A DNA stretch of 64,000 bases from Candidatus Moraniibacteriota bacterium (GCA_013334765.1 JAAXWW010000001.1:172589-236588); one strand, 5' to 3'; shown: positions 3,260 to 7,010, numbered from the stretch's first letter. Made by a program: numbers and translations. The notes: generated by a model from the sequence alone, not told the origin.

Positions 3260-3286
3260 ATTACAGGGGGGGGGGCAAAACCTTAA

Positions 3287-4261
3287 TGTGACAGATACAT
3301 ATTGAACACTATGAATATGATTCGAATTTTTCCATCGGCGTCATCAGATTCAATGATAAGTGCGGCCTTTTGAAATTGTATTCCTGCAGGAATATCTGGA
3401 ACTGGCTATTGAGGTCATGCAGGTCCTTAGCCGGCCTGTATCGCCAAAAGAAGAATTCTTCCTCATCGGTCCGGAATGATCTTTCGATGACCGCGTTCTC
3501 GTTGGGAGTCCGCTTGTGGATGAAGTGGTGCTTGATCTTCGAGCTTTCCAAAAAATTATCGAATGCTGATTGGAATTCCGCCCCGTTGTCGGTCTGGATG
3601 AAATGCACGCCAAAAGGCAGCGTGGGCAGCAGCACCTTCAGGGCGGCTACCGATGAATGGGCATCCAGGTAGGGAACGATCACGGCCTGCTTGTAACGCG
3701 AATATATGTCGATCACGGCGTATTCGAAGCAGGTATGCGGCAAGCCTGAGAGTTCGGGAGTGATGTATTTGACGTCCATCTGCAAATATCCCGGACGTTC
3801 TGCATTCCTAGTATGCATATGGGTGGTGGGTTGTAATTTAGGTCGGCGGTATTGCGTTTGCTTGGGGATCAATCTGCGCTTGTCCAGAAAACGATGGACG
3901 GTCCGGCGATGATAGTCCAAGCCCAGGATGTATCTCAGTTTGATCGCTCCGTAATTCGTTTCCTTTCTGGCGATAGTAATCTGATCCTGATGCGCTGAAA
4001 CAATCGTTGTTTCTCTGACAGTCTTCGGACGGGTTGATTTCCTTTCCAGGTTTGCTGAGCTCAAAGCCAGGTTCGAATGGATGCTCCTGGCTCGCTTTTT
4101 CCAAAAAATCACCGTGCCCGGGCTGATGCCGAGCATTCTAGCCGTTGCCCTGATTCTACCCTGATTCTTCTTCAATGTTAAGATGATTTCCCTTGGCTTT
4201 TTGCGCATATTGTTGCTTTCACTGCTATTGTAGCGGAAAGTGTTCAATATGTTGTGTCACA
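3287..4261 (-). mobile_element. IS481-family insertion sequence (compact, ~975 bp)
   Basis: Imperfect 24-bp terminal inverted repeats: TGTGACAGATACATATTGAACACT at 3287-3310 and AGTGTTCAATATGTTGTGTCACA at 4239-4261 (outer ends TGTGACA). They enclose a single DDE transposase ORF. No clear target-site duplication. Confidence 0.6.
3309..4208 (-). CDS. IS481-family DDE transposase (HTH + rve integrase core)
   Basis: N-terminal HTH ('ATARMLGISPGTVIFW') followed by a retroviral-type integrase core ('HFIQTDNGAEF…HKRTPNENAVIER'). Start taken at ATG 4208; an alternative TTG start lies at 4247 inside the right inverted repeat. Confidence 0.8.
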   Translation of the reverse strand: MRKKPREIILTLKKNQGRIRATARMLGISPGTVIFWKKRARSIHSNLALSSANLERKSTRPKTVRETTIVSAHQDQITIARKETNYGAIKLRYILGLDYHRRTVHRFLDKRRLIPKQTQYRRPKLQPTTHMHTRNAERPGYLQMDVKYITPELSGLPHTCFEYAVIDIYSRYKQAVIVPYLDAHSSVAALKVLLPTLPFGVHFIQTDNGAEFQSAFDNFLESSKIKHHFIHKRTPNENAVIERSFRTDEEEFFFWRYRPAKDLHDLNSQFQIFLQEYNFKRPHLSLNLMTPMEKFESYS

Positions 4262-4272
4262 ATAAGCAAAAC

Positions 4273-4301
4273 TTGACAAAGTAACAAGTTAGGTGTAAAA
4301 T
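4273..4301 (+). promoter_or_regulatory. sigma70-like promoter for the DGR target gene
   Basis: TTGACA (4273-4278), 17-bp spacer, TAAAAT (4296-4301). It sits just outside the IS right end and ~110 bp upstream of the 4410 ATG, which has a good RBS (aaaGGAGact). Confidence 0.45.
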
Positions 4302-4409: not shown

Positions 4410-5132
4410 ATGAAAGATGCAACCTTGAAACAGGCAGGAAAAGTATTGACGCTCATGGAAAACACCCCGTGCGAGCAGTTGCAGGAACTTTTGGGATCGG
4501 GACTGCTTTCTGATTTGCTGAGCTGCGATACGAAGCGCATTAGCCGTGACGAATTCAGGAAAATGTGCGGACTCAAGCCTCTCGTCCCCGAACCAGTGGT
4601 ACGCCTTTGGCAAGAACGGGATGGCGTGATTCGCTTCACGCTTCCGCCCACCGACGGAACGACCGGACCGCAGTGGATTGATCGCCTCGAAGGAAAAGGC
4701 TTCAGGCTTTCGAAGTGGGCAAAAGATGTCCTCAATTCGGAGGACTTCAAGCCGACGAGCGGTGTGATCTGCGAGATCGCGGTGCTCAAGGGGATGCTCT
4801 GGAATGACAACAAGCGCATAATCAAGAACATCCGCGCAGATGCCGACAATCGCAAACTGACCAAACCGAGCGCCGAGGTCGCCTGCATGATCCGCGAGAT
4901 GTTCTCGGATGATGAGATCGAAGCCATGGGTCTTTTCTTTGTTGTCACAATGCATGAACCCATCATCGATTCCGATGGTGGTCCGGATCTTCTCTATGCG
5001 CGCCGTGACGGTGGCGGTCGTTGGATGCACACGGCGTGTGTCGGGCCTGACTATGAGTGGCGTTGCGGCTATGGTTTTGCCTTCGTCGCCTCGCAAGTTG
5101 TCAGTGCTCAGGACTCGGCCACTCAGAGCTAG
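4410..5132 (+). CDS. DGR target (variable) protein with C-terminal C-type-lectin/FGE-like fold carrying the VR
   Basis: 240 aa and GC-rich relative to its surroundings. The C-terminal 'RRDGGGRWMHTACVGPDYEWRCGYGFAFVAS' resembles CLec/FGE-fold DGR targets. The last ~130 bp are near-identically repeated downstream (TR). Confidence 0.7.
   Translation: MKDATLKQAGKVLTLMENTPCEQLQELLGSGLLSDLLSCDTKRISRDEFRKMCGLKPLVPEPVVRLWQERDGVIRFTLPPTDGTTGPQWIDRLEGKGFRLSKWAKDVLNSEDFKPTSGVICEIAVLKGMLWNDNKRIIKNIRADADNRKLTKPSAEVACMIREMFSDDEIEAMGLFFVVTMHEPIIDSDGGPDLLYARRDGGGRWMHTACVGPDYEWRCGYGFAFVASQVVSAQDSATQS
4967..5096 (+). repeat. DGR variable repeat (VR)
   Basis: 130-bp near-identical copy of 5428-5557. Differs at 9 positions: 8 correspond to adenines in the other copy (A->G, T or C) and 1 is C->T. 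Confidence 0.8.
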
Positions 5133-5153
5133 TCCTCTCTAGAATCAAAAACG

Positions 5154-5196
5154 GAGCCTCGCGTGGAAATTATCACGCGGGGCTCTTTTATTTTAT
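5154..5196 (+). terminator. Rho-independent terminator after the DGR target gene
   Basis: ~12-bp stem (GGAGCCTCGCGTG / CACGCGGGGCTC) followed by TTTTATTTTAT. Confidence 0.55.
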
Positions 5197-5427
5197 GCTA
5201 AAATAAAACAGGTAGTAGGAAAGAACGCGGGCGATCACGGTTTCCCGCTTCCGAATCCAGTATCCATGTGTCGAGATTATCCGCGACCAAGGTTTCGGAT
5301 AGGGTGACGCATGCAGAAACTTCAAAAAATGAAGATACTTGGTGTGAAATGCTAGGGCATTTAAGATGCCGAATAAGATTCAACCCCGAGAGTATTCGAA
5401 GGGTGGTGGCAAGGGTGGCATTTCGCG

Positions 5428-5557
5428 CAATTCCGATGGTGGTCCGGATCTTCTCTATGCGCGCCGTGACGGTGGCGGTCGTTGGATGCACACGGCGTGT
5501 GTCAGGCCTGACAATGAGTGGAATCGCGACAATGGTTTTGCCTTCGTCGCCTCGAAA
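5428..5557 (+). repeat. DGR template repeat (TR)
   Basis: Invariant template copy. It carries AAT/AAC codons (N) at the positions that differ in VR (N->Y, N->R, D->G, R->G). Confidence 0.8.
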
Positions 5558-5563
5558 TTCTCT

Positions 5564-5902
5564 TTATTTTTCCTCTCCCTTATTGTTGGGAGAGGTTTTC
5601 TTTACAAGACTTCCATACCGACCGCCAAGATCTTTGCCGATCGAGTTCAGTTTTTCAGAAAGGAGAATATATTTTTTATCATCTAAAGATTTTGTTTCCC
5701 AAAGAATATTGAGAAAAATTTTTAGAACATCGGATTTACGAATGGCTAATCGGATGTATGGAATTTTTTCCTCGCCCTTCAAAAAAGCAGCAGCTGCAAC
5801 TGATTCGATTATTCCCATAAACAACCTGTCCGTCTTTTGCCCGAGGGTATATCTATGAGTGGTTGGTAAAATGCGATAATATCCGTACCATAATAAATAC
5901 AA
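5564..5902 (-). CDS. Avd-like accessory variability determinant (four-helix-bundle, S23-IVS family), tentative
   Basis: 112-aa minus-strand ORF between TR and RT. 'LGQKTDRLFMGIIESVAAAAF…IPYIRLAIRKSDVLKIFLNILWETKSL…LSEKLNSIGKDLGGRY' parallels the Avd/four-helix-bundle pattern (…eigkmLggw). Its orientation is opposite to RT and TR, which is atypical. Confidence 0.4.
   Translation of the reverse strand: MYLLWYGYYRILPTTHRYTLGQKTDRLFMGIIESVAAAAFLKGEEKIPYIRLAIRKSDVLKIFLNILWETKSLDDKKYILLSEKLNSIGKDLGGRYGSLVKKTSPNNKGEEK
5572..5603 (+). terminator. hairpin plus U-tract immediately 3' of TR
   Basis: Perfect 8-bp stem CCTCTCCC/GGGAGAGG with loop TTATTGTT, followed by TTTTCTTT. It may end the TR transcript or form part of the TR-RNA structure. 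Confidence 0.4.
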
Positions 5903-5936
5903 ATCTTTTACCTTATGGAAAACAGAAGGAAGATTA

Positions 5937-7010
5937 GTGCCGGGGGGGGGGTCTAAAAACAGAGTTTTTAGAAAAATTCAATTGGAGCATAGCTTTAAAG
6001 AAATTGTTAGCGTTGAAAACCTGCTCGAAGCTTGGGAGGAATTCATAAGAGGTAAAAGGAAAAAGAGAGATGTTCAAGTTTTCCAAATAAGATTGATGGA
6101 TAACATCCTTGCGTTGCATGAAGATCTTATTAATCATACCTACAAGCACGGAGGATATCAAGCTTTCAAGATAAACGATCCAAAGCCGAGAGACATTCAC
6201 AAGGCGAAAGTTCGCGATCGGCTGTTGCATCATGCAGTTTATAGAATCTTATATCCGTTTTTCGACAGAACATTTATTTCAGATTCGTATTCATGCAGAC
6301 TGAACAAGGGAAGTCATAAGGCAATTAGGAGATTCAGAAAATTCGCGAATAAGGCAAGCAATAACAATACGCGAACATGCTGGATTCTTAAGTGCGACAT
6401 CAGAAAATTCTTCGCCAATATCGATCACGAAATTTTAATGGGCATATTGAAAGAATATATTCTGGACAAGAATATTATTGATCTTCTGGAAAATATTATT
6501 GAAAGTTTTCATTCGCATGACAAGGGAATCGGTCTGCCGCTGGGAAATCTCACTTCGCAATTGTTCGTGAATATCTACATGAACGAATTCGACCAGTTTG
6601 TAAAGCACAAGCTTAAAGCAATGTTTTATATCCGCTATGCCGACGATTTTATGATTCTTTCTGAAAACAAGAAATGGCTGGAAGATCAAATGCCGGTTCT
6701 ACAGGAATTTCTCCAGAAAGAATTGCGACTTGAAATGCATCCCGACAAGGTTTATATCAAGACGCTTTCCTTAGGAGTGGATTTCCTGGGCTGGGTGAAT
6801 TTCTTTGACCATAGGGTGTTGAGAAAATCGACCGGAAAGAGAATGGCGAAAAGGTTAAGCAAGACGCATGATCAGGCGGTTCTTAGCTCCTATCTGGGTA
6901 TTTTATTTCATGGAAATACAGAAAAATTGGTGCAAAAATTTTTCAATGTTGACTTTTTCCGTTTTTTGGGCAAAAATAGAAATGTTGAAGAAAACACGCT
7001 AGGTTCTTGA
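5937..7010 (+). CDS. DGR reverse transcriptase
   Basis: RT motifs are present, including YADD ('IRYADDFMILS'). It carries the DGR-specific [I/L/V]GxxxSQ motif ('LPLGNLTSQLF') in place of the group II intron QGxxxSP. TR lies ~380 bp upstream. The GTG start lies 5 nt upstream of a G10 tract. Confidence 0.85.
   Translation: MPGGGSKNRVFRKIQLEHSFKEIVSVENLLEAWEEFIRGKRKKRDVQVFQIRLMDNILALHEDLINHTYKHGGYQAFKINDPKPRDIHKAKVRDRLLHHAVYRILYPFFDRTFISDSYSCRLNKGSHKAIRRFRKFANKASNNNTRTCWILKCDIRKFFANIDHEILMGILKEYILDKNIIDLLENIIESFHSHDKGIGLPLGNLTSQLFVNIYMNEFDQFVKHKLKAMFYIRYADDFMILSENKKWLEDQMPVLQEFLQKELRLEMHPDKVYIKTLSLGVDFLGWVNFFDHRVLRKSTGKRMAKRLSKTHDQAVLSSYLGILFHGNTEKLVQKFFNVDFFRFLGKNRNVEENTLGS

Follow-up and report, generated by a model that had tools for sequence, protein, structure and literature searches.

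We found that positions 4410-7010 of a 64,000-nt stretch of DNA from a Candidatus Moraniibacteriota bacterium (GCA_013334765.1 JAAXWW010000001.1:172589-236588; the whole stretch is called the window below, and all positions are counted from its first nucleotide) very probably carry a chromosomal diversity-generating retroelement (DGR) of a lineage specific to the candidate phyla radiation (CPR), which sits in a Candidatus Moranbacteria genome and acts on a small protein with a C-type-lectin (CLec) fold, apparently cytoplasmic, by diversifying its ligand-binding face. The order of the parts is target gene (+), template repeat (TR, +), avd (-) and reverse transcriptase gene (RT, +), that is, the core TR-(avd)-RT of architecture B3 with avd on the reverse strand. 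As a DGR, the element is an ordinary member of a described lineage, and its type is already known as common in CPR bacteria. What the comparison adds is a lineage-wide structured RNA domain 5' of the TR, whose topology appears to be permuted, and a simple-sequence tract between avd and the RT gene, neither of which we found described.

A repeat finder returned 4969-5096 and 5430-5557 as a 128-nt direct repeat with 94% identity and an offset of 461, and the ungapped comparison at this offset of the variable repeat (VR) in the target gene with the TR (4967-5096 vs 5428-5557) gave nine mismatches, at VR positions 4968, 5043, 5052, 5061, 5062, 5064, 5068, 5070 and 5094. Eight of them have A in the TR and G, T or C in the VR, and the ninth is TR C5525 against VR T5064; with 22 A in the 130-nt TR, the binomial probability that at least eight of nine mismatches fall on A is P = 5.1e-6. 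The adenine-specific difference, with the same counts, had been claimed in a preliminary description of this DNA, which also gave the open reading frames (ORFs) of the target, the Avd-like protein and the RT with the coordinates found here. All eight A sites occupy codon position 1 or 2, four of them in AAT codons and the others in AGG, GAC and AAA. The homology of the two repeats stops at 5096/5557 after a GC-rich, A-poor stretch, beyond which the flanks diverge (compare the initiation of mutagenic homing elements IMH/IMH*). A target-anchored scan of species-representative genomes gave 292 matched stretches, of which 80 loci were kept. A VR/TR pair is present in 44 related loci, where TR adenines account for 630 of the 659 mismatches, which indicates that the lineage is active now or was so recently.

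The RT has the DGR-type motif LGNLTSQ at residues 202-208 and YADD at 234-237, as already noted in the preliminary description. Among PDB sequences it matches 8ub7_A best (E = 2e-41, 145 bits), whereas the highest-scoring group II intron RT reaches 82 bits. The IGxxxSQ region aligns in this match, and 8ub7_A is the bRT chain from the DGR of the Bordetella phage (Handa et al., bioRxiv 10.1101/2023.10.23.563531). All 8000 RT candidates that were scored had E <= 1e-10; the 120 best are 64-73% identical to the RT of the window, and each specific taxon name among these 120 is a CPR name. Matches in phage genomes (including Bordetella, crAss-like, Vibrio VP585, BalMu-1 and ANMV-1) are all below 60% identity, with 31-39% among the matches listed; the nearest relatives of the RT, both solved and phage, are DGR RTs. 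The ORF on the reverse strand between the TR and the RT gene is an avd homologue by profile search, in agreement with the earlier proposal, with matches to NF033474 DivGenRetAVD (E = 2.5e-9, 37 bits, cut-off 80) and PF22296 bAvd (E = 2.5e-5) that both lie under the curated cut-offs; an orthologue in locus L164 has a recorded PF22296 match.

In a second scan, anchored on the RT and covering the 43 loci of metagenome contigs that extend 1 kb or more upstream of the RT gene, a reversed avd stands beside the RT gene in 43 of 43. The first survey of DGRs in CPR bacteria (Patescibacteria) is reportedly the one made by Paul and colleagues in 2017. The order TR-(avd)-RT with a reversed avd, architecture B3, is typical of CPR DGRs (Wu et al. 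2018, NAR 46:11, PMC5758913), and DGR clade 2 is confined to Patescibacteria, its targets typically being without transmembrane or recognisable domains (Roux et al. 2021, PMC8144416). Because of these two studies, we regard the reversed avd as the norm and the element as a member of the lineage they describe, so that the earlier remark that an opposite-strand avd is unusual does not hold, whereas the statement that DGRs are frequent in CPR genomes does. The element resembles the CPR DGRs of B3 or clade 2 in gene order, reversed avd, host group, C-terminal VR and a target lacking transmembrane or recognisable domains, and we found no categorical difference from them.

About 45 of the 80 target-family loci have the same order as the window, target(+)-TR(+)-avd(-)-RT(+), and about 30 have the target gene alone. 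In the latter (L006, L008-L012, L017, L019, L022, L026, L029, L035, L036, L041, L047, L049, L057-L061, L066, L068-L070 and L074-L078), there is no avd or RT match near the target, and some of the contigs end close by. Two genome bins hold a lone paralogue together with a complete DGR, and the differences between the paralogue VR and the TR are mostly at adenines (17 of 22 for the TR of L072 vs L078, and 17 of 29 for the TR of L025 vs L058); the lone paralogues may be remote or former targets. The titles of the metagenome-assembled genomes (MAGs) behind loci L007, L025, L040, L050, L052, L054 and L058 say Bdellovibrionales, Gammaproteobacteria or Pacearchaeota, and such non-CPR labels on loci of Patescibacteria type probably reflect mis-binning or mislabelling and not real hosts. 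The closest relative, L001, has a target 82% identical to that of the window and the same cassette in a different genomic context. Because BLAST homology between the two runs from window position 4273 (the target promoter, left edge) to 6649 in this other context, we conclude that the cassette moves as a unit.

The interval between the VR and the TR is where the first of these two features lies. In the alignment of the window with L001, this non-coding interval is better conserved than the avd region, and among 38 loci the segment 5199-5427 keeps 0.65-0.82 identity to the window in all 15-nt bins but one (0.59 at 5409-5423) and is almost gapless, compared with about 0.5-0.65 for avd and RT coding DNA. 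RNAalifold on 31 loci predicted 56 pairs, 39 of them with compensatory changes. We then scored covariation on an extended alignment for a structure of 80 pairs in 13 helices, using slid structures and 500 shuffles as controls. Standard pairs filled 96.5% of the cells in the real structure vs 37-52% in the slid controls, 48 pairs vs 15-21 had double changes, and the covariation score was 0.413 vs 0.137 or less; none of the 500 shuffles reached the observed values. The minimum free energy fold of the single sequence 5208-5606 has z = -1.8 only, with the TR pairing with itself, and was not used as evidence. About 7 nt ahead of the first helix lies a conserved TATAAT/TAAAAT box, which we presume to be the promoter of a TR-containing RNA. 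The domain has no match in Rfam 15, and we found no published description of it in the literature covered, which did not include Paul et al. 2017 or the supplements of Wu et al. 2018. A first regular-expression screen for the bridging motif and hairpin mis-anchored on GAGAGTATTC within the RNA domain and was replaced by extraction based on hidden Markov models.

The RNA domain is present in 42 of the 43 RT-anchored loci, and the target family of the window in just 4 of the 43. This indicates that the core module is RNA domain, TR, (avd) and RT, around which target genes are exchanged, and such exchange accounts for the compositional mosaic of the cassette noted earlier, in which the GC content is about 0.53-0.56 for the target gene and 0.36-0.42 for avd and the RT gene.

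A de novo fold of the whole alignment connects the 5' domain with the far side of the TR. The strand GAAGA (5331-5335) pairs with UCUUY 4-8 nt past the end of the TR/VR homology (UCUUU, 5561-5565, in the window), UUG (5339-5341) pairs with the final three TR nucleotides (CAA in most loci, AAA at 5555-5557 here), and the two helices are separated by a 3x3 internal loop. This bridging strand runs straight into the 5' strand of helix P3, whose partner strand abuts the first TR nucleotide. Compared over 87 distinct sequences, the GAAGA helix covaries at its terminal pair, which is A-U in the majority, C-G in about 10 loci, U-A in 3 and U-G in 1, and which is mismatched in four (L027, L105, L112 and L158); the UUG/CAA helix shows compensatory C-G changes in L053 and L137. 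An extension of the GAAGA helix by a 5' U:A pair was unsupported, C or A being frequent there opposite a constant A. The motif in the 3' flank, followed by a hairpin and GAGUUUUSUUU, occurs in 98 loci independently of the TR sequence or the target family. The hairpin, 5572-5595, covaries (helix 13) and looks like an intrinsic terminator in a terminator scan, with a conserved U-tract following it. We also noticed a local 4-bp hairpin, CUUC (5320-5323) with GAAG (5331-5334), which competes with the long-range GAAGA:UCUUU pairing (window 5320-5335) and, by analogy with the 'resting' conformations of BPP-1, could represent the RNA in an off-state.

The order of these elements can be compared with that of the BPP-1 RNA, in which a stop strand just 5' of the TR is followed by the TR, an Avd-binding stem-loop (spacer positions Sp 3-33), a primer strand (Sp 47-56, with priming from the 2'-OH of A56), a second stop strand (Sp 59-70), a short stem-loop, unpaired adenosines, a single-stranded thumb ring and an RT-binding stem (Handa et al., 10.1101/2023.10.23.563531). 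The CPR RNA has helices P1 and P2, a primer-like strand, a stop strand, a short stem-loop, an A-rich strand, a further stem-loop, the second stop strand, the TR, its flank and a terminal stem-loop. Both RNAs have a stem-loop directly 3' of the TR, which by analogy puts hairpin 5572-5595 in the position of the Avd-binding stem-loop, and a single strand (5331-5353 here) that pairs with the 3' end of the TR and then with a segment 5' of it; in both, this strand leads into a short stem-loop, then an A-rich single strand and then a longer stem-loop. A spacer of BPP-1 type 3' of the TR, which would hold the primer, the stop strand, the thumb ring and the RT-binding stem, was not found, and its counterparts sit 5' of the TR; 3' of the TR there is instead a hairpin with a U-tract about 15-45 nt on, and then the less conserved antisense avd. 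Thus, topology and covariation suggest that the CPR RNA is a circular permutation of the BPP-1 order, opened where the Avd stem-loop meets the primer strand and with the former ends joined.

At the level of proteins and repeats, the element and BPP-1 (mtd-avd-TR-brt) share a homologous RT with the IGxxxSQ-type motif, an Avd homologue, A-specific mutagenesis and a CLec-fold target. They differ in that avd in the window is reversed and 3' of the TR, the elements resembling primer, stop and RT-binding parts are 5' rather than 3' of the TR, the putative template:primer duplex is at and beyond the 3' edge of the TR and not inside it as in BPP-1, there are the extra 5' helices P1 and P2, the RNA ends about 45 nt past the TR at the terminator-like hairpin, and the element is chromosomal with a target that is no phage tail fibre.

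On this basis we propose a tentative model, to which we give somewhat less than an even chance, that CPR DGRs of type B3 use a permuted RNA of about 390 nt, with primer, stop strand, A-rich ring and RT-binding stem 5' of the TR, and combine it with phase-variable RT and Avd through the simple-sequence tract described below, so that hypermutation itself would be phase-variable. A discrete non-coding RNA would start from its own -10 box (about 5199), run through the structured domain and the TR and end at 5572-5603 with the Avd-binding and terminator hairpin, and RT and Avd would bind it. GAAGA (5331-5335):UCUUU (5561-5565) would be the template:primer duplex, with priming from the 2'-OH near A5335; cDNA synthesis would begin a few nucleotides 3' of the TR/VR homology, misincorporate opposite TR adenines and be halted by helix P3 (5342-5353 : 5417-5428) at the 5' edge of the TR, and the cDNA would replace the VR in mutagenic retrohoming. 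With a circular permutation, it would be understandable that a reversed avd has room in the TR-RT interval, that no RNA-like element is needed between the TR and the RT gene, and that the RNA can stop at a terminator-like hairpin, which shares the final 12 codons of the convergent avd.

The competing explanation is that the 5' domain is a leader, riboswitch or small RNA for TR transcription or stability, or only a scaffold for RT and Avd, and that priming takes place from a region 3' of the TR (antisense to avd) as in BPP-1. Read-through of the hairpin would allow 5604-5900 to be transcribed in the + direction, P1 and P2 have no BPP-1 counterpart, and the permuted-RNA model is itself drawn from sequence only. 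Moreover, Handa et al. (10.1101/2023.10.23.563531), who covered 40 nt upstream and 100 nt downstream of the TR, reported stem-loops just 3' of the TR and putative stop duplexes in a set including CPR members. However, conservation is lower 3' of the hairpin (0.52-0.68) than in the 5' domain (0.65-0.82), though two bins (5664-5708) reach 0.73-0.80 with codon positions not separated, and the U-tract directly after the hairpin is conserved. Covariation accompanies the pairing of the bridging strand with the two TR boundaries, the elements after this strand follow the BPP-1 Sp order, and no known riboswitch or Rfam family matches. We therefore consider the leader or scaffold explanation rather unlikely, while taking it seriously.

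The second feature is the tract midway between the divergent starts of avd and RT, a G10 run in the window. Among 106 loci with both genes, 83 have a poly-G of 7-14 nt (mode 10) at this site and 9 have another repeat, namely (TTGG)n of up to 11 units, (TTGA)n, (GGCT)n, (GT)n or (CT)n, so that about 87% of the relatives carry a simple repeat there. Outside this site, G/C runs of at least 8 are essentially absent: 1.09 Mb of locus DNA has 100 such runs, in 97 loci. Loci L043 and L073 have flanks 96% identical and 2 vs 3 TTGG units, and their sublineage also includes L032 with 11 TTGG units, L033 with (TTGA)6 and L039 with G12; a pairwise screen of flanks gave one near-identical pair only, in which both tracts were G10. 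That the site is fixed while one repeat type has been exchanged for another there points to selection for slippage as such. In many loci, A/T-rich -10-like hexamers directly follow the tract. The pattern suggests phase-variable expression of RT and/or avd through slippage, and the G10 tract in the window may switch the DGR machinery on and off in this way.

Known phase-variable promoters that are controlled by simple-sequence repeats include the divergent hifA/hifB promoters of Haemophilus influenzae, with a (TA)n tract, and those of Neisseria porA/opc, with poly-G/C tracts. The CPR site resembles them in having a hypermutable tract at a fixed place between divergent genes, with type and length varying among close relatives. 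It differs in that the controlled genes would be a mutagenesis machine and not a surface structure, and that in the window the tract may fall inside the RT ORF. We found no literature linking DGRs to simple-sequence tracts. The RT start in the window is uncertain between GTG 5937, which reads through the G10, and TTG 5982: the canonical ATG-AAA-ATT start is missing and there is an in-frame GTG upstream instead, and L001 is arranged alike. With the usual ATG absent and an in-frame start upstream of the tract in these two loci, slippage would shift the RT frame. The deposited RT (HGB08_00985, 304 aa, P0121) begins at an internal ATG and omits about 50 N-terminal residues (window 5937-6096). The N-terminal extension of the Bordetella RT aligns with these residues, so that the gene has probably been annotated too short.

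Insertions, too, are concentrated between avd and the RT gene, which makes this intergenic region a hotspot for them. L023 has an insert of about 1.2 kb (~1300-2480), and inserts of about 100 nt follow the G tract in L046, L087, L094 and L124, with a shared start CACCC[CT]GTTA[AG]AA in L046, L087 and L094. Two long perfect palindromes replace the simple-sequence tract in L164/L165 (1370-1490), and the P0185 RT sublineage (65 contigs) has two palindromic insertions and no G tract.

Whether this particular copy still works is a separate matter, and the alternative to a functional DGR is a decaying, currently inactive relic, whose TR was corrupted by recombination with the VR, whose RT lost its normal start codon and whose VR/TR differences date from past activity. 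Several observations weigh on its side. Of the 28 adenine columns that at least 80% of the relatives conserve, 12 are missing from the TR of the window, the highest loss among the 45 TRs compared. Its 5' 74 nt differ from L001 at 22 positions, 15 of them at L001 adenines (P = 2e-4), an imprint of A-mutagenesis, and its 3' 55 nt differ at 2, none at an L001 adenine. The 5' part of the TR is identical to the VR except at one position, none of its 9 remaining adenines differs in the VR, and no adenine within 5430-5492 differs between TR and VR. The simplest reading of these sequences is that VR-type, already mutagenised sequence replaced the 5' two-thirds of the TR by recombination. In addition, the canonical RT start is absent, one VR/TR mismatch is not at A, and an IS481 element is inserted 1 nt upstream of the -35 box of the target promoter. 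The relic explanation nevertheless has to contend with intact ORFs for RT, avd and target with the catalytic motifs present, a fully conserved RNA domain, a clean A-to-N pattern in the 3' part of the TR, where 7 of 13 adenines differ in the VR, and an available in-frame GTG start that is matched in the closest relative. On balance, we take a relic to be a real possibility but the less likely one. The codons that currently show diversification are only 187, 212, 215, 218, 220, 221 and 229. Marked loss of TR adenines is also seen in L018/L084, L063 and L052.

That there is no DGR at all, the repeat being an ordinary segmental duplication that happens to adjoin an unrelated RT of retron, group II or Abi type, has a negligible probability: the best NCBIfam match of the RT is indeed the group II model TIGR04416, and the retron, Drt and Abi models match weakly, but all of them score far under their cut-offs (145 bits against 300 for TIGR04416 and 57 against 235 for the retron model), no group II intron, retron or other Rfam RNA was found at E <= 1 in Rfam 15, and the adenine-specific mismatches (P = 5e-6) recur in 44 relatives, next to an Avd homologue and a much stronger match to bRT than to group II RTs in the PDB comparison.

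A hypothetical protein from a Candidatus Moranbacteria MAG has 100% identity with the target protein, and the exact protein occurs in one assembly only; the RT, too, is an NCBI protein of a Candidatus Moranbacteria MAG. Among 1128 candidates, 878 are homologues with E <= 0.001; those listed are mostly about 200-240 aa and have no Pfam domain, and each specific taxon name among them is Patescibacteria. In the family alignment, the first 60 or so residues are variable, a strongly conserved core (~62-186) follows, and then comes the C-terminal segment, for which 112 sequences give the consensus DSDGDPxLLxAxRxGxGRWLxAxxxxPDxxWxRxxGFAFV, the unconserved positions falling within the VR. A structure model predicts that residues ~62-232 form one CLec domain, of which the VR would supply the last strands. 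The suggestion of a C-terminus like that of CLec/FGE proteins therefore finds support at the fold level in the model. The preliminary description had also been right that there is no signal peptide, and neither a lipobox nor a transmembrane or hydrophobic segment was found in the sequence; its separate N-terminal domain of about 190 aa does not stand, since a single CLec domain over residues ~62-232 leaves no such domain as such. No Pfam or NCBIfam family matches at E <= 0.1, including FGE-sulfatase PF03781 and DUF1566, and no PDB sequence at E <= 10, so that the CLec likeness is at fold level only. The target thus has no detectable sequence similarity to Treponema TvpA (2y3c), Bordetella Mtd (1yu0) or CLec folds of the FGE/EgtB/PvdO types, and it differs from these in being much smaller, the whole domain having about 170 aa, and in having no signal peptide, lipobox or transmembrane segment. 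Wu et al. 2018 (PMC5758913) left such VRs as 'UVR' classes of unassignable fold, whereas here a CLec fold is modelled. One protein, P0006 (385 aa, JGI), has two tandem copies of the whole CLec-type domain.

As claimed earlier, the cassette is flanked by an IS481 element and the ATP synthase operon: an IS481-family transposase gene (3309-4247, -) lies upstream of the target, and an AtpZ-like gene followed by atpB/E/F/H lies downstream. The GC-rich hairpin 57 nt past the VR (Table 1) is probably the terminator of the target gene and, by analogy, the positional counterpart of the BPP-1 inverted repeat downstream of IMH, a role in homing being suggested via Wu et al. 2018. Further (remote) VRs of the TR were sought within the 64-kb window, and none was found. 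The IS481-family element lies between two copies of a 6-bp direct repeat, CAAAAC, at 3276-3281 and 4267-4272, with imperfect inverted repeats inside the element. Only two G/C runs of at least 8 occur in the window, 3266-3275 and 5942-5951; without the IS481 element, the former, a second G10 tract, would sit 6 nt before the -35 box of the target promoter (TTGACA, 4273). A G-run before the target promoter was rejected as a lineage feature, as 0 of 79 loci have one.

Table 1. Positions of the DGR parts and of the RNA and promoter features in the window
Feature	Position	Strand	Remarks
Target gene	4410-5132	+	240 aa; residues 1-~60 variable helical segment, ~62-232 modelled C-type-lectin fold
Variable repeat (VR)	4967-5096	+	encodes target residues 186-229, the last beta-strands of the modelled CLec fold
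Template repeat (TR)	5428-5557	+	5' part 5428-5503 adenine-depleted and VR-like; 3' part keeps AAT/AAC-type codons
avd homologue	5564-5902	-	112 aa; convergent orientation to the TR RNA, the hairpin after the TR overlapping its final 12 codons
DGR reverse transcriptase gene	5937-7010	+	maximal ORF 357 aa; RVT_1 E = 1e-24
Target-gene promoter, sigma-70-like, TTGACA-17-TAAAAT	4273-4301	+	11/12 consensus matches
GC-rich 14-bp hairpin and T-run	5153-5186	+	57 nt past the VR; terminator scan
Extended -10-like box (TGCTAAAAT)	5196-5204	+	TATAAT/TAAAAT with upstream TG in relatives
Conserved structured RNA domain	5211-5428	+	about 220 nt; 3' strand of P3 abuts the TR
Helices P1; P2	~5211-5258; ~5259-5316	+	helices of the 5' RNA domain
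Bridging strand GAAGA / UAC / UUG	5331-5335 (GAAGA); 5339-5341 (UUG)	+	
P3 5' strand; P3 3' strand	5342-5353; 5417-5428	+	
Hairpin; A-rich single strand; stem-loop	5356-5370; 5371-5382; 5383-5404	+	
Conserved TR 3' flank	5555-5603	+	AAA 5555-5557 (CAA in most relatives), UCUUU 5561-5565, hairpin 5572-5595, U-tract 5596-5603
G10 tract	5942-5951	.	midway between the divergent avd/RT starts; in frame inside the longest RT ORF here

The DGR itself adds little, as CPR genomes are known to be rich in exactly such elements. How reverse transcription proceeds in DGRs is known from one phage element, with a spacer 3' of the TR (Handa et al., 10.1101/2023.10.23.563531), and the literature we found does not address how cDNA is primed in the abundant CPR elements with a reversed avd, for which the permuted, covarying RNA offers a concrete and testable model. 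A compact RNA-TR module of this kind could be moved between targets. If the proposed role of the avd/RT tract in about 87% of the relatives is true, symbionts with tiny genomes would gate their own targeted hypermutation stochastically. Finally, a widespread CLec target of about 210 aa without an export signal bears on the question, raised by Roux et al. 2021 (PMC8144416), of whether CPR DGRs diversify intracellular binders.

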